Shown: positions 51,256 through 63,669 of the stretch, piece after piece
How positions within the stretch are numbered: position 1 is the stretch's first letter
Layout of the letters: every line of letters starts with the position of its first letter
Assembly (NCBI GenBank): GCA_963555755.3
Contig: OY820905.2
Coordinates: forward strand, 3,616,001 to 3,680,000
DNA: 64,000 nt
Source of the DNA: Nitrospirales bacterium
Lineage (GTDB): Bacteria > Nitrospirota > Nitrospiria > Nitrospirales > UBA8639
Reading direction: 5' to 3'
Program-made: the position numbers and the translations under genes
Notes under the pieces: model-generated
What the model was told of the DNA's origin: nothing
The model's database searches: none
Seen by the model: the letters and a program-made list of their open reading frames with translations, nothing else

Positions 51256-52923
51256 ATGAAAACGATAACCATTCATTCATCAGTGTATCAGGCTCGATTC
51301 CTGGCCAGGGTTCAAACGGATTGGGTAAAGGATTGGTCGGTCCTTTCCTGGGTCGGACGGGGGACGGAGTTGCGGCTGGATTCTTGCAGGCGAGTTCTCT
51401 TTGTGTCGCTTTTCTGGGGCATGGTTCTCATGGCCTGTGTCTTTTCTGTTGGATGTGCCACGGTGCAAGAATCAGAGACCCCCGTTGATGAATCACAAAA
51501 TCCTATCAAATCTTTGTCGGCACCGAGCTCTACTCTTCCTTCTTCCTTAGAGCCTGAACCTCCTGTTCCTCCCCAGCCATCTCCTTTTACCCTTGAAGAA
51601 CGGATGTCGTTTGGCAATTCTTTGGAAGAGAATGATGCAGAAAAAGAACCAGAGCAACGCTATAGTTTTCGGGCGCAAGAGATGTTGTTGGCTGATGCCC
51701 TTCGGCTGTTTGCTCGAGCGAATTCCCTCAATATCGTAGTGGGGCCTGAAATTAAAGGATCGGTGACCGTCGACTTTCAAGGCCTGTCGCTCAGAAAAGC
51801 TATGGTCGCGCTGCTGGATGTACATGGTTTCTACTGGGTAAAGGAAGGCGAACTGATGATCGTTCGTCGGTTGGAAACCCGAACATTCACTATTGATTAT
51901 ATCCGTTTGGTGCGTAGTGGAATTGGTCGAAGCGTAGCGAAATCGACATCTGGATCATCCTCGGGTAGTTCCTCGGGGGGCGGCGAAGGGACTGTACAAG
52001 TTGGCCAAGAGGACAGCGTCAAATTTTGGGAAGAATTGGAACAACAATTGAAAACCATGATTTCTGAGGAAGGCCGCTTCGTGGTGAATCGCCTGTCAGG
52101 CACAATTCAGGTGACGGATCTTCACCGGCGGGTTGAAGAGATTGCGGAATTCTTAAGTCTCCTTCGTCGGTCTTTATACAGGCAAGTTGAGATCGAAGCT
52201 CGAATTTATGAGGTGGCATTAAATGATGATTACAGCCTTGGCATTGATTGGAGTCGGATCGATCTCGGTACAGTGGATGGCACAACTGGCAGCCTGGCGT
52301 TAGAAAATATTATTGGCATCCCGGCTGGGGGTTTTACCGCTAAGGCGGTGTCTACCACGCTCAGTTTCGTCGGAGGAAGTTTTGAGGCAATGCTCACAGC
52401 GTTGCATGAACAAGGGGAGGTCAGGGTTATTTCCCAACCTCGTTTATTAACAATGAATAATCAGCCGGCTCTCATCAAGGTGACTACGGATGAATCGTTC
52501 TTTACTCAAACTGTTTCACAGGGATCTGGTGGAACAGGCAACGTGATCTCTGAGCAGGTTCAGAGTGTGTCGGTTGGGCTGATATTGTCCATTACACCAC
52601 AAATCTCGGAAGACGGCTGGATCATGTTGGATGTGACGCCGATTATTACCCGGCTGAGTGAAATCGTCGAATCACCACTGAAGACAGCCACAGCACCCGT
52701 TGTTGAGGTCAAACAAATCTCTGCATTGGTGAGGCTTCGGGATAGGGAAATGGTGGTGCTTGGCGGATTGATACAGGACCGCGTCTCCCACACAGAGAGA
52801 AAAGTGCCTATACTGGGTGATCTTCCGTGGTTGGGTCGGATATTTAAAGGGACGTATGATGTGAAGGAAAAAACCGAGTTGGTGATTTTTCTGTCGCCCC
52901 GTATCGTTGGCGTGGACTCATAA
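51256..52923 (+). CDS. Secretin (MshL/GspD-like; true start probably downstream)
   Basis: Lipobox-like SVGC, ETRTFTIDY, Ser-rich loop, QVEIEARIYEV, KVPILGDLPWLG and ELVIFLSPRI motifs. Confidence 0.9.
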   Translation: MKTITIHSSVYQARFLARVQTDWVKDWSVLSWVGRGTELRLDSCRRVLFVSLFWGMVLMACVFSVGCATVQESETPVDESQNPIKSLSAPSSTLPSSLEPEPPVPPQPSPFTLEERMSFGNSLEENDAEKEPEQRYSFRAQEMLLADALRLFARANSLNIVVGPEIKGSVTVDFQGLSLRKAMVALLDVHGFYWVKEGELMIVRRLETRTFTIDYIRLVRSGIGRSVAKSTSGSSSGSSSGGGEGTVQVGQEDSVKFWEELEQQLKTMISEEGRFVVNRLSGTIQVTDLHRRVEEIAEFLSLLRRSLYRQVEIEARIYEVALNDDYSLGIDWSRIDLGTVDGTTGSLALENIIGIPAGGFTAKAVSTTLSFVGGSFEAMLTALHEQGEVRVISQPRLLTMNNQPALIKVTTDESFFTQTVSQGSGGTGNVISEQVQSVSVGLILSITPQISEDGWIMLDVTPIITRLSEIVESPLKTATAPVVEVKQISALVRLRDREMVVLGGLIQDRVSHTERKVPILGDLPWLGRIFKGTYDVKEKTELVIFLSPRIVGVDS

Positions 52924-53750
52924 TGGTCACTGACCTTCAGGAATGTTACCAACCATTGGGTTTTACGGAGCCTCCTTTTCGGATTACTCCAGATACGGAT
53001 TTCTTTTTCCCAGGAGACCGTCACCTTCAAGCCTTAGACCATTTGCGATTTGGGGTGGCGAGCGGTGGATTAACACTCCTGACTGGTGAGGTCGGGACTG
53101 GCAAAACGTTACTCTGTCGCTATTTCCTTCGGCACCCTCCGAAGGGCATTCGGTTCGCCTATCTCCTGAATCCTGATCAATCCTATGTTGACCTACTGAC
53201 CTCTATTTATGAAGATCTGACGGGTCTCATGCCAGAGGATCGAACGATTGGGGCTCTCCAACGTACGTTACACAAGTTGCTCCTTCAGTTGGCGGATGAG
53301 GGAGAGCGGGTCGCCGTGGTGGTTGATGAAGCACATCGGTTGAGTGGAAAGGTGTTGGAAGGCCTGAGACTCTTATCAAATTTGGATACAGAAAAAGAGA
53401 AACTCATGTGTTTGTTGTTCGTAGGCCAGCCTGAATTAGAGCAGACTCTTTCCAGTCGTGCCCTTCGTCCGCTGTCTCAACGAATTAGCAACCGATTTCG
53501 GTTGACACCCTTTAATTGCCGAGAAACCACGAGGTATATTCAACACCGTCTTCGGATTGCAGGGCGTCATTCCAGGTTTCAATTTCCCAAACGTGTCATG
53601 GTGTTAGTCCATTTTATGAGTGGAGGGGTGCCTCGGCGTATCAATCAAATATGTGAACGTGGCCTTCTTGCGGCGTATTCCCAAAAGAAGACTAAACTGG
53701 GTGTTCGGATGATATTGCGGGCCAGGCGTGAAATTCTTGGGCTGGCGTAA
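52923..53750 (+). CDS. ExeA/MshM-family AAA ATPase
   Basis: PFRITPD, TGEVGTGKT, VDEAH, VGQPEL and GGVPRRIN motifs. Confidence 0.9.
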   Translation: MVTDLQECYQPLGFTEPPFRITPDTDFFFPGDRHLQALDHLRFGVASGGLTLLTGEVGTGKTLLCRYFLRHPPKGIRFAYLLNPDQSYVDLLTSIYEDLTGLMPEDRTIGALQRTLHKLLLQLADEGERVAVVVDEAHRLSGKVLEGLRLLSNLDTEKEKLMCLLFVGQPELEQTLSSRALRPLSQRISNRFRLTPFNCRETTRYIQHRLRIAGRHSRFQFPKRVMVLVHFMSGGVPRRINQICERGLLAAYSQKKTKLGVRMILRARREILGLA

Positions 53751-53844
53751 GCCGGAATCCGTGGCTCGTCGCTCGTGAAAAAACGAAATTGGAGCAACGT
53801 GCAACAAGCGACGAGCGACCGTTTTTCTTCACGAAATACGAACT

Positions 53845-55026
53845 ATGAGCATTGTCACTGATACGCTTAATCGTCTTCAGATTGAGCGGTCAAGGCTAAC
53901 CAGTCAACCAGAGTCTGCGTCCTCCTTACCTGAGGAATTGTCAGAGTCTGCACCCCCTTCCCCTGAGGAACCTTCACTATTTTCTCCTCCAAAGGAAAAC
54001 CATCTTGCCCCGCAGGCATCCTCTTCAATGTTGAGAAAAGGCATTCGTCTTGTAGCGATTCTCGCCGTACTTGGGGGGATAGGTCTGGGCGCCTATGTCT
54101 GGGGCCTCAGTCTCGTTCCAGAAGTCGTACCGTTCAGCTCGCCCTCAGAGCCAATTGTCGAATCAACTGAATTAGGTTTTCAGCCCGCTGAATTGGCGAG
54201 TGTCGTTCCCGCGGAGGCGACGACCTCAAAGGAAGATCTTGTTGAGGAGCTAGCGACTCAGAGCGTGACGGCTCCGACTTTGGCTGAATCAGGACAGCCT
54301 GCTATTGAAGCCACCCCATCGGTATCAAAGAAAGAAAAACCTAAGTTGGAGCCCCTCTCCACGGCGAAGCCAGTTCCTTCTTCATCAGACAGTCGACAGG
54401 CTCGTTTGAGTTCTCCCTCAGAGAATGGCGTGGCCCCGACCATATCTCAGCCTCCCCCCTCGAGGCGAAGTGCGGGAACAGATGGGAGCCTAGAGACAGA
54501 CAAAGGATCAAAGAGAGCCCAATCCCCAGTCACGGTGCCTCCATCGGCCACCTCGTCGGCAGCCAAGTTAGTACGTGCCCAATACTTGATTAAAAAGCGG
54601 CAATATGGCCAAGCGGTCACGATGCTCCAACCTCTGTTTGTGAAGCCCCCTGATCGTTGGGAACCCTGGTTTTGGCTTGGAACCGCACAGTTAGGATTAG
54701 GACAGTTGGAGGAAGCCGAGGAGTCTTTTGTAGAAGGATTAGCGCGAGATGCCACGGTGCCTCAGTTGTGGGTGCAACGCGCACTTGTAAGTCAACAACA
54801 AGGAAAATTTGGAGAAGCCCTGGAGGCACTTCGTCAGGCCGAACTGATTGCTCCTCAACTGCCGGAAGTCCAACTGAATCTCGCCTACTCCCTCGAAGTT
54901 CAAGGCCACATCGAACCTGCCGTGGACCATTATCACACCTTCTTAGCCCTGACCGAAGGAAACCCTGCCTACTACCCCGCCAGAAGAAAAGTCCTGGAAC
55001 GAGTCATTCGGCTGGAAAAAACCTAG
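53845..55026 (+). CDS. TPR protein with GspB/MshN-like architecture
   Basis: MSIVTDTLNRL N-terminus, TM, Pro/Ser-rich linker, C-terminal TPRs. Confidence 0.75.
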   Translation: MSIVTDTLNRLQIERSRLTSQPESASSLPEELSESAPPSPEEPSLFSPPKENHLAPQASSSMLRKGIRLVAILAVLGGIGLGAYVWGLSLVPEVVPFSSPSEPIVESTELGFQPAELASVVPAEATTSKEDLVEELATQSVTAPTLAESGQPAIEATPSVSKKEKPKLEPLSTAKPVPSSSDSRQARLSSPSENGVAPTISQPPPSRRSAGTDGSLETDKGSKRAQSPVTVPPSATSSAAKLVRAQYLIKKRQYGQAVTMLQPLFVKPPDRWEPWFWLGTAQLGLGQLEEAEESFVEGLARDATVPQLWVQRALVSQQQGKFGEALEALRQAELIAPQLPEVQLNLAYSLEVQGHIEPAVDHYHTFLALTEGNPAYYPARRKVLERVIRLEKT

Positions 55027-57467: not shown

Positions 57468-58952
57468 TTGGTCTTTGCTATGGTCTGGACCGCAATACTT
57501 AATTGGGAGGCGGCATTGATTAATTCTAGGTTTTACAACATATTTTCTCTGGGAACAGTGGCCCTTCTTTTGGGCTGGCCCGACCTGCTGTGGGCTTCCG
57601 AAAGTTCTGCCCCCCAACTTGATCTCACCAATTCCGCTGTCGGGTATTTTGCTTTAGCCATATTTGTGGCGGCCTATGCGTTGGTGATGGCCGAAGAATT
57701 TACCCACCTACGCAAATCCAAACCCGTAGTTTTAGCAGCGGGGATTATTTGGGTGCTCGTGAGTCTGGCTTATCCCGGAAGCGACCCACATGCGGTCGAA
57801 CAAGCCATCCGCCATAATATTCTGGACTACGCCGAGTTGATGCTCTTCCTCCTGGTGGCAATGACGTACATCAATGCCATGGAGGAGAGGCTGGTGTTTG
57901 AGAGTCTGCGATCCTGGTTGGTGCGGAAAGGCTTTACCTATCGGCAGCTGTTTTGGATTACCGGCATTCTGGCCTTCTTTATTTCGCCAGTGGCAGACAA
58001 TCTGACGACGGCCTTACTCATGTGTGCGGTGGTCCTCGCGGTCGGGTCAGACAATCCTCGGTTCGTCAGTTTGGCCTGTATTAATATTGTAGTGGCAGCC
58101 AATGCCGGAGGGGCGTTTAGTCCGTTTGGCGACATTACGACCTTGATGGTCTGGCAAAAAGGAATCGTGGAATTTTCCACGTTTTTCTTGTTGTTTGTGC
58201 CCTCGGTCGTCAATTTCCTGGTCCCCGCGGGGATTATGCACTTTGCCGTGCCCCAGGTATCGCCTGCGCCTTCGGATGAAGTGGTGGAAATGAAACGTGG
58301 AGCGCATGTCATCATGTTGCTGTTTCTCTGCACCATTTGTACGGCCGTGAGCTTTCATAACTTTCTGCATCTCCCGCCGATGGTCGGCATGATGACTGGC
58401 TTATCCTATCTTCAATTTTTCGGGTATTACCTCAAGAAGACGCATAACCAGTATGCCGAACCTGGAACGTGGAGTGAGGAAAAAGCCCAAGAACGAATCG
58501 GCGATGTGGTCCCGTTCAATATTTTTCACAATATTTCCCGAGCGGAATGGGACACCTTACTCTTTTTCTATGGCGTGGTTCTTTGTGTTGGGGGGCTTGG
58601 GTTTTTAGGATATCTGGCGGTCGCGTCTCAAGTCATGTACATCCAATGGGGCCCCACCTTGGCGAATACGATGGTTGGGATTCTTTCCGCGATTGTGGAT
58701 AACATACCCGTGATGTTTGCGGTGCTGACCATGAATCCGGATATGTCTTTGGGTCAATGGTTGTTGGTGACGTTAACCGCGGGTGTGGGGGGGAGCATGT
58801 TGTCAATCGGATCTGCCGCAGGAGTGGCACTCATGGGACAAGCCCGAGGCATGTACACCTTCTTCAGTCATCTCAAATGGACTCCAGTCATAGCCCTGGG
58901 CTACGTCGCCAGCATCCTAGTCCATTTGTGGATCAACGCCAGTTACTTTTGA
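57468..58952 (+). CDS. nhaD: NhaD-type Na+/H+ antiporter
   Basis: EEFTHLRKSKP, ADNLTTAL, ANAGGAFSPFGDITT, VDNIPV and SIGSAAGVALMG motifs. Confidence 0.92.
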   Translation: MVFAMVWTAILNWEAALINSRFYNIFSLGTVALLLGWPDLLWASESSAPQLDLTNSAVGYFALAIFVAAYALVMAEEFTHLRKSKPVVLAAGIIWVLVSLAYPGSDPHAVEQAIRHNILDYAELMLFLLVAMTYINAMEERLVFESLRSWLVRKGFTYRQLFWITGILAFFISPVADNLTTALLMCAVVLAVGSDNPRFVSLACINIVVAANAGGAFSPFGDITTLMVWQKGIVEFSTFFLLFVPSVVNFLVPAGIMHFAVPQVSPAPSDEVVEMKRGAHVIMLLFLCTICTAVSFHNFLHLPPMVGMMTGLSYLQFFGYYLKKTHNQYAEPGTWSEEKAQERIGDVVPFNIFHNISRAEWDTLLFFYGVVLCVGGLGFLGYLAVASQVMYIQWGPTLANTMVGILSAIVDNIPVMFAVLTMNPDMSLGQWLLVTLTAGVGGSMLSIGSAAGVALMGQARGMYTFFSHLKWTPVIALGYVASILVHLWINASYF

Positions 58953-59006
58953 TCCACCGCCCCAGCCCTAACATGGTCATTTCTAAAAGGGTCCTTTACT
59001 TTAATG

Positions 59007-59076
59007 GGGGTCAGACTCGATTTAATAATGAAGCGTGACTGGTCGAGCGTGTGGGGGTATTAAATCGAGTCTGACC
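59007..59076. repeat. REP-like palindrome interrupted by the group II intron
   Basis: GGGGTCAGACTCGATTTAATA ... TATTAAATCGAGTCTGACC|CC(61049-61050)TTTTT gives a perfect 21-bp stem after intron removal. Confidence 0.85.
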
Positions 59077-61048
59077 GTTCGCAGTAACAGCAGTATGTCT
59101 AGCGGGTTAAAGTCCCGTCCAAGGAATTGTCCGTACACCTTGGTAGCATGAGGAAGCGGCGTCGTGGTAACGCGGGGTCGTCAGTTTCCCCACAGCAAAA
59201 GAGCAGGCCGTAACGCAAGTGAACCGATGAGTAGCCTCGTAAACGAAGTGGAGACGCCGACCCTGTGGTCAGAAGGGGAAGGCCGGTGGAAGGGTGCTGG
59301 AATAACGGAAGTGGCATCCCTCGACTCCCGGGGTAGCAAGGATGGCATGTTCTGGAAGACATATAGCCCAGTGCTGGAGACCCGTTGTGGGGGTGGGGAG
59401 GCCACCGACCAATGTGTATAAGGCAACGAAATCACAGCGGCCCGGAACGGGAGTCGGAGGGGTTCATAGTACCGCGTGAGGCCGAGGGACAACACAACCC
59501 CGGTCGAGGGAAGGAACCCTACTTTGTTCAGGCAACCGAAGAGCGGAGGATCAGGGGATTGCCATGGCGCTAACCACCCCGGAGACGATCAGGACGCTAC
59601 AGAGGAAGCTGTATGCCAAGGCCAAGCAAGAACCGGCCTATCGCTTTTACGCCCTCTACGACAAGATCAGCCAGGAGGATATCCTCAATCATGCCTGGCG
59701 GCTTGTTCGAGCCAATCGAGGCAGCCCCGGGAGTGATGGGCTCAGCTTCGAGGCCATAGAGAGTGGAATCGGGGTAGACACGTTTCTGCGGGAATTGCCC
59801 CGTGATCTGCAAGCCAAGACCTACCGAGCCCAACCGGTGCGACGCGTCATGAGACTTAAAGCGGACGGCAGTTTCCGTCCGTTGGGGATCCCGACGATCC
59901 GAGACCGGGTGACGCAAATGGCCGTGAAACTCATCATCGAGCCGATCTTTGAAGCCGACTTCTGTACGAATTCGTACGGATTCCGGCCCAAGCGATCGGC
60001 CCATGATGCGGTGGACGACATTGCCAAGACGCTCTGGGCCGGCTACACCCAAGTCATCGACGCCGACCTGTCGAAGTACTTTGACAGTATCCCGCATGCC
60101 AAACTCCTGGCCGTGGTTGCCGAGCGCATTGTGGATGGGGGCATCCTGCGCCTCATCAAGCAATGGCTCAAAGCCCCGGTTATTGGCGACGACGCGGACG
60201 GCACCCGGAAAAGTGTAGGCGGCGGGAAAGCCAACCGCACGGGGACTCCGCAAGGCGGAGTGATTTCCCCGCTGCTGGCTAACTGCTACCTGCACATTCT
60301 GGATCGAACCTGGCAACGGCGACACTGCAAAGATAAATTGCACGCGCACTTGGTGCGCTACGCAGATGACTTTGTCGTGATGTGTCGAAAAGATGTAGAG
60401 GAACCGCTGAAGGTGGTGCGCCACGTACTGGACCGACTGGGCCTGAGTCTCAACGAGGCCAAGACCCACATTGTGGATACGACCAAAGCGAGTTTCACCT
60501 TCCTGGGTTTTACGCTGCAGATGAGTCGAGGGGCAAAGACTGGAAAGCCGTACCCGAATGTTCGACCGGCAGACACCTCGCTGAAGCAGATCAAAGCGAG
60601 ACTGACCGACCTGACACAGCGGGACCTGACCGCCATTGCCTTGAGCGACCTCGTGGGAACGGTCAACCGCAGCCTCCGCGGCTGGGTGAACTACTTCCAC
60701 TATCGGAACTCAAGTCTGGCAATGAGCAAGGTCAGAAACCATGCGGAGGACCGGTTACGAACCCATTTGATGAAACGCCACAAGATCAAGGACAGAGGCA
60801 CCGGCTTACGCCGGTTCCCGCAGGCCGATCTGTATGAGCGTTACGGGCTATACAAGGTTCCTACAGTAGCGGGCTGGCGCTCGGCGCATGCCTTGGCATG
60901 AAGAACATCGGAAAGCCGTGTGCGGGAAAACCGCATGCACGGTTTGATGAGGGGGCGCTGGTAATTGCTGACTGCTATGGTCCGTGGTAGACGCGTGCGT
61001 CGAAGCGTTCGAGAGCAGCTCCATGTATGCACCAGTGCTCTACTCTAC
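59077..61048 (+). mobile_element. Complete group II intron (IIB-like), 1972 nt
   Basis: 5' GTTCG; EBS1 GGTCAGA at 59267-59273; DV AAGCCGTGTGCGGGAAAACCGCATGCACGGTTT at ~60913-60945; 3' CTACTCTAC. Confidence 0.92.
59564..60901 (+). CDS. ltrA: Group II intron reverse transcriptase/maturase, no endonuclease domain
   Basis: RPLGIPTIRDR, SYGFRP, DADLSKYFD, GTPQGGVISPLLAN, YADD; X domain LRGWVNYF. Confidence 0.95.
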   Translation: MALTTPETIRTLQRKLYAKAKQEPAYRFYALYDKISQEDILNHAWRLVRANRGSPGSDGLSFEAIESGIGVDTFLRELPRDLQAKTYRAQPVRRVMRLKADGSFRPLGIPTIRDRVTQMAVKLIIEPIFEADFCTNSYGFRPKRSAHDAVDDIAKTLWAGYTQVIDADLSKYFDSIPHAKLLAVVAERIVDGGILRLIKQWLKAPVIGDDADGTRKSVGGGKANRTGTPQGGVISPLLANCYLHILDRTWQRRHCKDKLHAHLVRYADDFVVMCRKDVEEPLKVVRHVLDRLGLSLNEAKTHIVDTTKASFTFLGFTLQMSRGAKTGKPYPNVRPADTSLKQIKARLTDLTQRDLTAIALSDLVGTVNRSLRGWVNYFHYRNSSLAMSKVRNHAEDRLRTHLMKRHKIKDRGTGLRRFPQADLYERYGLYKVPTVAGWRSAHALA

Positions 61049-61227
61049 CCTTTTTAAATGCCTCTTTTAGACTGTTAGATCCCTTTTAGAGGCTGGGGTG
61101 GCCGTGTAAGTTTTCTGTTCCTGCGTTGGTTTGTCTGCTTGCGCGAAGCCAGTGTTCAATCCTGTTGCTTTGATGCAGAATTTTTCTCCTGTTGACTTAC
61201 CCACTTCCCATCCTTAGGCTTGAGCTG

Positions 61228-61836
61228 ATGGACAAACAAAGACCAGCATCAGATGTGATGAATGCGCGGTTTTCGGTGGCCGGCGTGATTCCTCTGAACA
61301 TCCCCAATGCGCTGACGATTTTGCGGATTTTGTTGATTCCGGTAATCGTCGGGTTTTTGGTATATGGGCATTATGACTATGCGTTGATTACGCTGATTGT
61401 CGCGATGATTACCGATGCGCTGGATGGGACTATTGCCCGACTGGCCAATCAAAAGACGCAGTTTGGCGCGTACCTCGATCCACTTGCGGACAAGCTGCTG
61501 CTCATGACCACGTTCATTACCTTTTCGCTGTTAAGCCTTGTGCCCGTCTGGAGTGTTATTGTAGTGGTCAGCCGCGATGCTATTTTGCTCACGGGTACGT
61601 TGCTTTCTCACGTGACGGACACGAAAATTGATGCTTCTCCCTCCGTGTTGGGCAAAGCGACGACCTTGTTTCAGTCAGCCTACATTATCTTGGTACTTAT
61701 CTTTTCGTCCCGCCAGTTTGATCCCGAGCTCTTGACCCCGCTGTTGTATACGATGTGCATTTTGACTGTCGCATCTGGGCTTCATTATATTATGCGAGGC
61801 GTGAGTAAAATGAATTCCCCGGACGGTAATCCGTAA
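61228..61836 (+). CDS. CDP-alcohol phosphatidyltransferase (PgsA-like)
   Basis: NIPNALTILR, TDALDGTIAR...FGAYLDPLADK. Confidence 0.9.
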   Translation: MDKQRPASDVMNARFSVAGVIPLNIPNALTILRILLIPVIVGFLVYGHYDYALITLIVAMITDALDGTIARLANQKTQFGAYLDPLADKLLLMTTFITFSLLSLVPVWSVIVVVSRDAILLTGTLLSHVTDTKIDASPSVLGKATTLFQSAYIILVLIFSSRQFDPELLTPLLYTMCILTVASGLHYIMRGVSKMNSPDGNP

Positions 61837-61854: not shown

Positions 61855-63669
61855 ATGGTTCGCGAGCGGATGGGCAAGTTGTTACTCGAAGCCGGTTGTA
61901 TTTCCGAGGCCCAACTGCATGCTGCGCTTCAAGTCCAACAAGACACCAAGGCCCGGCTTGGCGCCATTCTTGTCGAGCAAGGCGCGATTTCTGAACACAC
62001 CCTTCTGACTTTCCTTGGACAACAGTACGGGTTGCCCGTGCTGCATGATCCTCCCGATTCACCTGATCCTGGTTTAACCCAATTCGTGTCATTCGAATGG
62101 GCCCAACAGCAAGGCATCGTTCCTATCAAAAAAATTGGAAACCGGCTGACGGTGGCTATGGTGAATCCAGCGGATGTGCGTCTGCTCGATGAACTGCGGT
62201 TTCGGACGAACTGTTCGATTATTCCCATGGTAGCGCGTGAAGCCGATGTGTGTAATCGGATTCAGCTCCTGTACGGGAAATCATCTAAAAAATCTCTGCC
62301 TTCCGATTCACCAGTGGTGTCGCGATCAGGAGATAGATTTTCCCATCCAGGCAATGGGGCTGGCGATAACCGACTTCATGACGAAACATCTGAAAATGAT
62401 TCCCTGTTGAATCAGGCGAATATGACTGCCTTACTGGAACGAGCCTCGTCCAGTTTGCTGGATACCCAGCCGACATTACATGGCGAGGTGTTCGTAAAAG
62501 ATGATTCTCCAATTGTTGATTTGGTCACTACCATCGTGGCGAATGCGGCACAGGTCGGGGCGAGTGATATTCACTTTGAGCCATTCGAAACGTCGGTTCG
62601 AGTTCGGTTTCGGTTGGATGGGGTGTTGCAGACACAGATGACCTACCCGCTTCGTCTTCGGAACGCGGTGATTTCACGCCTGAAGATTTTGGCGAAGCTG
62701 GATATTACTGAACGCCGGCTTCCACAAGATGGACGGTTGAGTGTGGATGTGGATCAACAGCGGTCGCTAGATGTGCGGCTGTCTATTTTACCGAGTTTCC
62801 ATGGTGAAAAAGCCGTGTTGCGTTTATTAAACCGGTCAGGACTGACCTTGGATCTTTCAGCCTTGGGATTGGCTGATGCCGAACTTGCGAACTTCCTTGC
62901 CGCGTTAGAGCAACCCGACGGGATGGTTCTGGTTACCGGCCCAACAGGTAGTGGCAAGACCACGACATTGTATTCGGCCTTGCAGGTGTTGAATACTCCT
63001 GATGTCAACATTGTGACCGCTGAAGATCCGATTGAATATCACTTTGCGGGCATTACTCAGGTTCCCATCAAAGAAGAAATTGGCTTGACCTTTGCCACGG
63101 TCCTGCGGGCATTTCTCCGACAAGATCCAGACATCATGATGGTGGGGGAAATCCGTGATTGGGAAACCGCTCAGATTGCGGTGAGGGCCGCGTTGACCGG
63201 GCATCGAGTCCTGTCAACGCTTCATACTGGCGATGCGGTTCGAACGGTCACGCGACTGTTGGACATGGGGGTTGAACCGTTTATGGTGGCATCCTCGCTT
63301 CGTTTGATTGTTGCGCAACGGCTGGTGCGGAAGGTGTGTGCATTGTGCCAGAAGCCTGATCCCATTCCATCTGATCAACTGATGAAGATAGGATTCACCG
63401 AAGAAGAAGCGCACGAGGTGGTGCCGGTACGTGGGCAAGGGTGCCCAGCCTGTCATTCTACCGGGTATCGCGGACGTATCGGGTTGTTCGAAGTCTTGCC
63501 TGTTTCTGAAGCTCTTCAGTCCCTCATCTTGCAGCGGTCTTCGTCGGACCTTCTCCGTCAGCAAGCCCGACAGGAAGGTCTCAAGTCTTTGCGTCAGAAC
63601 GGGTTGAACAAGATTAGGGCTGGGTTGACGACGATTGAGGAAGTAATGAGTGCTTCAACACTGACTTGA
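61855..63669 (+). CDS. pilB: Type IV pilus assembly ATPase
   Basis: MshEN N-terminus, ASDIHFEP, GPTGSGKTTT, TAEDPIEY; followed by pilT. Confidence 0.88.
   Translation: MVRERMGKLLLEAGCISEAQLHAALQVQQDTKARLGAILVEQGAISEHTLLTFLGQQYGLPVLHDPPDSPDPGLTQFVSFEWAQQQGIVPIKKIGNRLTVAMVNPADVRLLDELRFRTNCSIIPMVAREADVCNRIQLLYGKSSKKSLPSDSPVVSRSGDRFSHPGNGAGDNRLHDETSENDSLLNQANMTALLERASSSLLDTQPTLHGEVFVKDDSPIVDLVTTIVANAAQVGASDIHFEPFETSVRVRFRLDGVLQTQMTYPLRLRNAVISRLKILAKLDITERRLPQDGRLSVDVDQQRSLDVRLSILPSFHGEKAVLRLLNRSGLTLDLSALGLADAELANFLAALEQPDGMVLVTGPTGSGKTTTLYSALQVLNTPDVNIVTAEDPIEYHFAGITQVPIKEEIGLTFATVLRAFLRQDPDIMMVGEIRDWETAQIAVRAALTGHRVLSTLHTGDAVRTVTRLLDMGVEPFMVASSLRLIVAQRLVRKVCALCQKPDPIPSDQLMKIGFTEEEAHEVVPVRGQGCPACHSTGYRGRIGLFEVLPVSEALQSLILQRSSSDLLRQQARQEGLKSLRQNGLNKIRAGLTTIEEVMSASTLT

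Follow-up and report, generated by a model that had tools for sequence, protein, structure and literature searches.

Homing of a group II intron into transposon inverted repeats is already published: RmInt2, a class D intron of Sinorhizobium meliloti GR4, inserts into the inverted repeats of ISRm17 (PMC4615759). Here, a 64,000-nt stretch of the genome of a Nitrospirales bacterium (GCA_963555755.3, contig OY820905.2, positions 3,616,001 to 3,680,000; hereafter the window) was analyzed, which carries a group II intron at 59077-61048. This intron encodes no endonuclease, is inserted in a terminal inverted repeat (TIR) of the TIRYT type, 2 nt short of the outer end of the repeat, and probably homes by pairing of its exon-binding site 1 (EBS1, GGUCAG) with the repeat terminus YTGACC/C, where the slash marks the insertion point. 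RmInt2 and the window intron share the lack of an endonuclease, transposon inverted repeats as natural targets, relaxed specificity and a bias for the lagging-strand template. However, RmInt2 uses EBS2, has a -16/+7 site and is known from one insertion sequence (IS) in one strain, whereas the window intron is of variety g4, shows no EBS2 pairing, uses the terminus of several HUH-Y1 TIR families and has a motif that is kept across phyla. Since the principle of an intron in a transposon repeat is known from RmInt2, the surprise is limited; for the link to TIRYT elements, no paper connecting group II introns or g4 with TIRYT/RAYT repeats was found in a literature search from which subscription papers and the intron database lay outside.

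In its 445-aa protein, its size and the missing endonuclease, the window intron resembles variety g4 (former class F), for which a reverse transcriptase (RT-X) protein of 444-446 aa and an intron of ~1.99 kb are given (Toro and Martinez-Abarca 2013, PMC3552965). The available part of that paper gives no g4 target (the locus column is empty) and does not mention GUUCG, GUACG, GUAUG or GCAUG 5' ends. The repeat resembles those of TIRtrons/TIRYT (Di Nocera 2013, PMC3733652) and of TnpA-Y1 subclass 2.1 (10.1101/279083), in which TIRs flank Y1 genes with a Y---NP motif. Single, dimeric and clustered copies of TIRYT TIRs are known as well (PMC3733652), and the word 'intron' is absent from the available text of the same paper. 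Group IIC introns (PMC8919778, PMC3753933) likewise have no endonuclease, no working EBS2 and intergenic sites, but they read a stem-loop with a short EBS1, whereas the window intron has a full-length EBS1 and a dispensable hairpin. EBS2 was shown to be dispensable for splicing in E and F introns (PMC3753933). IS elements that target repetitive extragenic palindromes (REPs) also use a dispersed extragenic repeat as landing site, but with DNA transposases, canonical REPs and no RNA guide (PMC1525189). Two further papers (PMC12584367, PMC8643678) concern IIB1 introns.

Boundaries and class of the window intron

When 59077-61048 was excised in silico, the arm at 59007-59027 was followed, after a 30-nt spacer, by its exact reverse complement (59058-59076 joined to 61049-61050). 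The initial annotation had proposed that excision restores a perfect 21-bp inverted repeat followed by T5, with the intron 2 nt from the stem base, and both statements were borne out. The 21-mer arm had two matches in the window at up to 3 mismatches, a number reached in 0 of 100 shuffles. The features of the locus are as follows.

59077-61048, + strand: group II intron, 1,972 nt, starts with GTTCG and ends with AC; missing from a natural allele
59007-59027, + strand: left TIR arm, begins GGGGTCAG and matches the TIRYT consensus GGGGWSAS
59028-59057, no strand: TIR dimer spacer, 30 nt, with a sequence that varies among the dimers of the genome
59058-59076, + strand: portion of the right TIR arm that precedes the insertion (5' exon); intron-binding site 1 (IBS1) at 59071-59076, possible seventh pair at 59070
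59240-59249, + strand: domain I bulge at the expected EBS2 position, with no consistent exon pairing
59265-59273, + strand: EBS1 loop GTGGTCAGA, with EBS1 (GGTCAG) at 59267-59272
59564-60901, + strand: intron-encoded RT/maturase, 445 aa, YADD, no endonuclease domain, variety g4
60912-60945, + strand: domain V, intact in the window copy; many paralogs hold a g2 intron at the equivalent of 60944/60945
60949-61045, + strand: domain VI with a distal extension and a bulged A close to the 3' end
61049-61055, + strand: 3' exon, final 2 nt of the TIR (CC) plus T5 (61051-61055)
57468-58952, + strand: upstream host gene, CitMHS-family transporter, on the same strand as the intron
61192-61836, + strand: downstream host gene, CDP-alcohol phosphatidyltransferase

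A natural intron-free allele was found in DNA run X8, a sediment metagenome with a related strain that differs from the window sequence at scattered positions. One contig of 1,052 nt joins 58842-59075 to 61048-61817 and thereby omits exactly 1,972 nt, with an ambiguity of 1 nt and no target duplication. Thus, the palindrome exists without the intron and the insertion was precise. The intron-containing allele was recovered from runs X1 and X5, which possibly represent the source sample or a close strain and are therefore not independent. The intron opens with GTTCG and does not fit the 5' GUGYG consensus of group II introns, which is regarded as a variant of this lineage; its boundaries are fixed by the empty allele.

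Both ends of the ribozyme were recognized above the Rfam cut-offs, with group-II-D1D4-6 (RF02005, 71.2 bits) at 59109-59343 and Intron_gpII (RF00029, 50 bits) at 60911-61048. Minimum free energy folding of domains I-III gave a z of -0.04 and was not used. In a domain scan the 445-aa protein, the RT/maturase encoded in domain IV, matched RVT_1 and GIIM only and no endonuclease family, in agreement with the earlier description of the intron as endonuclease-less, and scored 372 bits against TIGR04416 (cut-off 300). The distance from domain V to the intron end is ~137 nt, compared with 73 nt in many homologs; among close homologs, domain VI occurs in this short form and in long forms of ~112-152 nt.

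The intron protein groups with variety g4. In a quick maximum-likelihood tree without bootstrap, built without class C, D and E references and with one fragment as the single g4 anchor, it fell within a clade of 16 rows (SH-aLRT 100) that contains this fragment, from Nitrococcus mobilis. Protein identity was 72% to g4, 49% to g3, 39% to g2 and 34% to g1. The anchor was equated with the g4 entry of Toro and Martinez-Abarca by span and reading length rather than by accession, because 728 nt separate the start of its match from the intron end and an internal GTG opens a reading of 162 aa, as in their Table S2; a second N. mobilis fragment corresponds to the g2 entry of 223 aa. In N. mobilis, the published g4 intron lies within a GGGACAG...CTGTCC/C dimer and has EBS1 GGACAG. 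Of 7,998 proteins that were scored, at least several thousand belong to the family at E 1e-100, a number that may include other varieties.

The target repeat and its hairpin

The repeat is a multicopy TIR of the GGGGWSAS type that belongs to TIRYT tyrosine-transposase elements. It had been described as a REP-like palindrome, which had to be revised: canonical REPs have a foot (GTAG/GTGG or CGTC) that stays unpaired, next to a short hairpin of self-complementary sequence (PMC3733652; 10.1101/279083), whereas the arms studied here start with GGGGTCA, pair to their end, are not self-complementary and have no GTAG/GTGG or CGTC foot. They fit the TIRYT consensus, written GGGG[AT][CG]A[CG] (PMC3733652; 10.1101/279083). 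As first proposed, the arm is multicopy, with 26 empty arms of the form CGAGTCTGACC/C and 3 occupied ones in the source genome (G000), and 9 empty arms in a second genome (G004).

Of the 17 Y1_Tnp matches in the source genome, 5 are tightly bracketed by inward GGGGTCA repeats around genes with the Y---NP motif of class 2 (G000:C1 2922733/2923712, 1146649/1147642, 490027/491042, 2166702/2167717 and 761600/762598). Two broken Y1 copies are bracketed in the same way, and the inner sequence of the repeats is specific to each type. The arm family of the window accompanies a 235-codon Y1 frame (G000:C1:1284229-1284936), with an intact arm 460 nt upstream and a degenerate arm at the stop codon, and in G004 it brackets a frameshifted Y1 gene (L102). 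This frame scored 72 bits against NF047646, under the cut-off of 80. Both Y1 proteins that were tested stayed below that cut-off; one has a DnaA-C-like tail, as described for TnpA-Y1 subclass 2.1 (10.1101/279083). The AGACCTGACC family (38 empty and 2 occupied arms) was excluded from the TIRYT-linked count because no flanked Y1 gene was seen there. In the orthologous region of 10 relatives, a solo arm was present in one genome of the same genus and no arm in the other 9.

At the window locus the two arms form a stable hairpin (-42.7 kcal/mol as RNA) that is followed by a T run and lies 55 nt past a stop codon, and an inverted partner was also present at 10 of 71 homolog sites. This is what would be expected if the intron, like group IIC introns, recognized the structure of a palindrome or terminator hairpin. 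However, an inverted partner within 150 nt was found at 5/17 occupied sites versus 43/164 empty arms, the intron is inserted within the stem and not after it, EBS1 is of full length, the protein groups with g4, and the same-genus ortholog (L107) has a solo arm at this very locus. Recognition of structure is therefore regarded as extremely improbable, and the hairpin is incidental and not needed for the target. The structure is no standard terminator either; a scan of the intron-containing 58900-61300 gave 0 terminator-like sites, the 30-nt spacer exceeding the 3-8-nt loop that the scan allows.

EBS1 pairing in genome copies and homologs

All 17 intron 5' ends in the source genome come after YTGACC. 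The copies form two subfamilies that start with GTTCG and GCATG and whose proteins are 59% identical. The loop GTGGTCAGA is identical in 15 of the 15 copies with an intact domain I, while the exons diverge beyond -6, and it was found after at least five arm families. One EBS1 (GGUCAG) thus serves several TIR families through their common terminus. The loop of the window copy is complementary to exon positions 59070-59076, as the 7-base match noted in the initial annotation implies, but the seventh pair differs among copies with identical loops. At the other end, 18 intron 3' ends were listed and C is the next base in all except one truncation point. The occupied sites were distributed over the arm families AGATT (6), GAGTC (3), GACT (3), AGACC (2), GGCC (1) and ATGCC (0), plus two variants, and about 200 arms are accessible in this genome. 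Of the proposed specialization on one multicopy palindrome, the copy number thus holds, but what the intron targets is a TIRYT end motif that at least five arm families have in common. Seven copies without an open reading frame (ORF) belong to g4, and each of them contains a g2 intron.

Families that flank Y1 genes account for 13/17 occupied sites, compared with 164 of the 1,533 empty YTGACC/C sites and with 136 of the 561 empty sites in non-coding DNA (Fisher p 1.3e-5). After merging of three related flanks the occupied fraction was 11/15 (p 1.1e-4). The leading-strand sequence is the sense strand in 15/17 copies (p 0.0012; origin and terminus assigned by GC skew), which corresponds to insertion into the lagging-strand template.

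Homologs were taken from 80 genome and 80 metagenome loci, which had been selected by protein similarity. These 160 loci yielded 92 5' ends (68 had no usable one), of which 85 had a parsed EBS1 and 7 did not. Starts were chosen near the start of the hidden Markov model match by the pattern G[TC][TAG][CT]G, which admits GTGCG; they were GTTCG in 46, GTACG in 25, GTATG in 18 and GCATG in 3 homologs, and a GTGYG start occurred in 0/92. EBS1 and IBS1 formed on average 5.35 of 6 Watson-Crick pairs versus 4.25 after shuffling, a value matched by 0 of 10,000 shuffles, and this covariation supports the earlier claim that the site is determined by EBS1-IBS1 pairing. Pairs one to five hardly vary, and the sixth is looser. 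At position -3, which is the variable W of the TIR consensus, the pair is T:A in 48, A:T in 24 and C:G in 6 homologs.

The site ends in TGWCC in 63 of the 85 homologs and in CGTCC in 3, and 11 are one mismatch away; aligned in this way, most homologs keep both EBS1 and the target motif, so that close relatives in unrelated targets are not the rule. The 3' exon starts with C in 113/116 and with CC in 79. Four loci are close to transposase genes: L039 and L048 are inserted 2 nt after a Y1 stop codon, with the stop TGA being the TGA of TGACC, and a Y1 match begins at a distance of 117 nt from L127 and 64 nt from L151. Y1 matches were found in 6/65 upstream and 1/88 downstream flanks (p 0.024). 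Copies of the intron's own target 13/14-mer numbered 9 in G004, 7 in G006, 4 in G005 and 3 in G002, with 0-1 for reversed controls. In G003 there were 2 pattern copies, the own exon being one base different, and the count of 0 in G009 is no test, as the exon there differs from the pattern. A search of 232 plasmid records gave no relative at 60% or above.

No consistent EBS2-IBS2 pairing was found, and identical loops adjoin different exons. Among 44 introns, excluding the two genome copies with a broken domain I, the best Watson-Crick run averaged 2.82 versus 2.65 in shuffles (p 0.04; p 0.06 when G-U pairs were allowed), mostly 2-3 bp.

Several results weigh against homing to TIR ends as such. 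When a C at +2 was required, the enrichment fell to 13/17 versus 113/281 (p 0.004; p 0.012 with flanks merged). With AT-rich flanks matched, a test that omits 3 of the 17 copies because they have no paired 3' end, it was 9/10 versus 106/208 (p 0.015), and at the strictest context-matched cut 5/6 versus 62/100 (p 0.28); the coding mask behind these site counts is crude. The 27 arms of the ATGCC family are all free of introns. Among the homologs, 8/85 sites are at least two bases away from TGWCC, including the retargeted L125, L135 and L184 and the opposite-strand L188, L195 and L199. In G008 only one empty copy of the own 13-mer is present, and as a Y1 match occurs in only 7/153 flanks, the motif is the sole basis for assigning most homolog sites to TIRs. 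Because of the relatedness of the homologs, which include near-duplicates, counts overstate independent events. EBS3 was located neither by motif nor by alignment column: +1 is C in 79/81, no column is complementary to the two exceptions alike, and the highest-ranked column is part of the stem below EBS1. The spliced junction was not found in RNA run X18, in which contigs are sparse; RNA runs with small shares were excluded. Three sister introns (L188, L195 and L199) with EBS1 GTCTGT match the other strand of the end motif, L199 being located after GGGGTCAGAC, the opposite strand of the same end.

These results bear on the possibility that the association is a by-product, in which an intron of relaxed specificity reads a 6-7-nt motif in AT-rich non-coding DNA while selection removes genic insertions. 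TIR arms would then simply happen to account for many of the suitable sites, and EBS1 would be conserved through recent horizontal spread and not through specialization. TIR arms make up 51% (106/208) of the context-matched empty sites, and as they are about half of the best-matching sites, the data from this genome are by themselves no proof that more than motif and context is recognized. The lack of EBS2 pairing, the retargeted members and the occurrence of 80-87% identical proteins across phyla point in the same direction. However, EBS1 changes together with the variable W of GGGGWSAS in proteins down to ~60% identity. In the genome whose intron (L094) has EBS1 GGACAG, a GGGACAGACCACG arm is located directly upstream of a Y1 gene, and two homolog sites are at the second nucleotide after the stop of Y1 genes. 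A by-product is therefore considered unlikely, and homing by EBS1 to the outer TIR end remains the preferred explanation. Directly shown are the two ends of the intron, a natural allele without it, the many copies of the repeat, the repeat-flanked transposase genes, the EBS1-IBS1 covariation and the strand bias.

In the source genome, empty arms lean against the orientation that the intron prefers (53/164; 46/134 clusters, p 0.0004), with 684/1,533 of all YTGACCC sites in the preferred orientation. A strand bias of the TIRYT system or loss of arms after intron insertion may account for this lean.

Proposed homing route and elements nearby

From what is known of group II introns, the intron would be transcribed by read-through with the host operon and spliced with the help of its own maturase. 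By analogy to RmInt1 and RmInt2, the ribonucleoprotein may then reverse-splice into the single-stranded lagging-strand template at the replication fork, where cDNA synthesis could be primed without an endonuclease (PMC4615759). Since only 5-7 bases common to the TIR families are read and no working EBS2 is evident, whole elements, dimers and solo arms can all be used. As the insertion faces outward, the transposase gene is not disrupted, not even in cases in which the repeat contains its TGA stop. One genetic parasite thus appears to use the ends of another as landing sites, a niche that most g4 introns, in different phyla, seem to have retained.

The transposase itself could assist homing if binding or nicking by TIRYT at the TIR end exposed single-stranded DNA or provided a 3'-OH primer, in which case the intron would depend on the transposase, too. 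The insertion 2 nt from the element end in 17/17 copies, the use of the other strand of the same repeat by a sister intron (L199) and the action of Y1 enzymes on single-stranded DNA (10.1101/279083) would agree with this. However, the fixed position follows from base pairing, the 15/17 strand bias is expected from replication-fork priming alone (PMC4615759), and two copies are located in the AGACCTGACC family, where no flanked Y1 gene was seen. Such assistance is thus very improbable.

Homing by EBS1 to TIR ends supplies a natural target for an intron variety that has none in its defining paper. It would be a third route to safe sites, besides hairpin reading by IIC introns and homing into a single IS, in which only a few bases are read that numerous repeat families have to retain. 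The intron positions would also be an independent map of the poorly studied TIRYT ends, and the intron a compact, testable system for EBS2-independent homing. A broader version, in which g4 is a class-wide hyperparasite of TIRYT, with a guide that tracks the end motif across phyla, sister lineages that use both strands, and single-strand processing by the transposase that licenses or primes insertion, is quite doubtful. If it were true, the intron cut would mark the functional end of a transposon family of uncharacterized mechanism, and TIRYT end, g4 intron and g2 intron in domain V would form a three-tier nest.

A g2-variety intron (FADD) inserts at the domain V base of other introns, e.g. 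at G000:C1 2999-4992. Of its 14 5' ends, 10 are in domain V of g4 introns of this family, 2 are tandem insertions downstream of the g2 intron itself, 1 is in domain V of another class and 1 is elsewhere. In N. mobilis (G001; L047, L083 and L087) the g4 and g2 intron ORFs are both split near the PQGG motif by similar elements, which, judging from a protein motif, are presumably of recombinase type. Tandem short repeats of TIR ends and T-rich units occur by TIRYT genes and intron 3' ends (G000:C1:2174381-2174650 and 1568727-1569101, and the flanks of L040, L048 and L122). A short palindrome contains two overlapping intron 3' ends in back-to-back arrangement (G000:C1:1222530 on the - strand and 1222559 on the + strand); C comes after each of them, and no other part of the intron is nearby.

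Within the window, a different group II intron is represented at 132-205 by its 3' end (domains V-VI); the corresponding RT (G000:C1:3614715-3615794, 32% identical) is encoded immediately ahead of the window. The ORFs at 51256-55026 and 61855-63669 presumably encode secretin-like, AAA ATPase and TPR-like proteins and a PilB/GspE-like ATPase.

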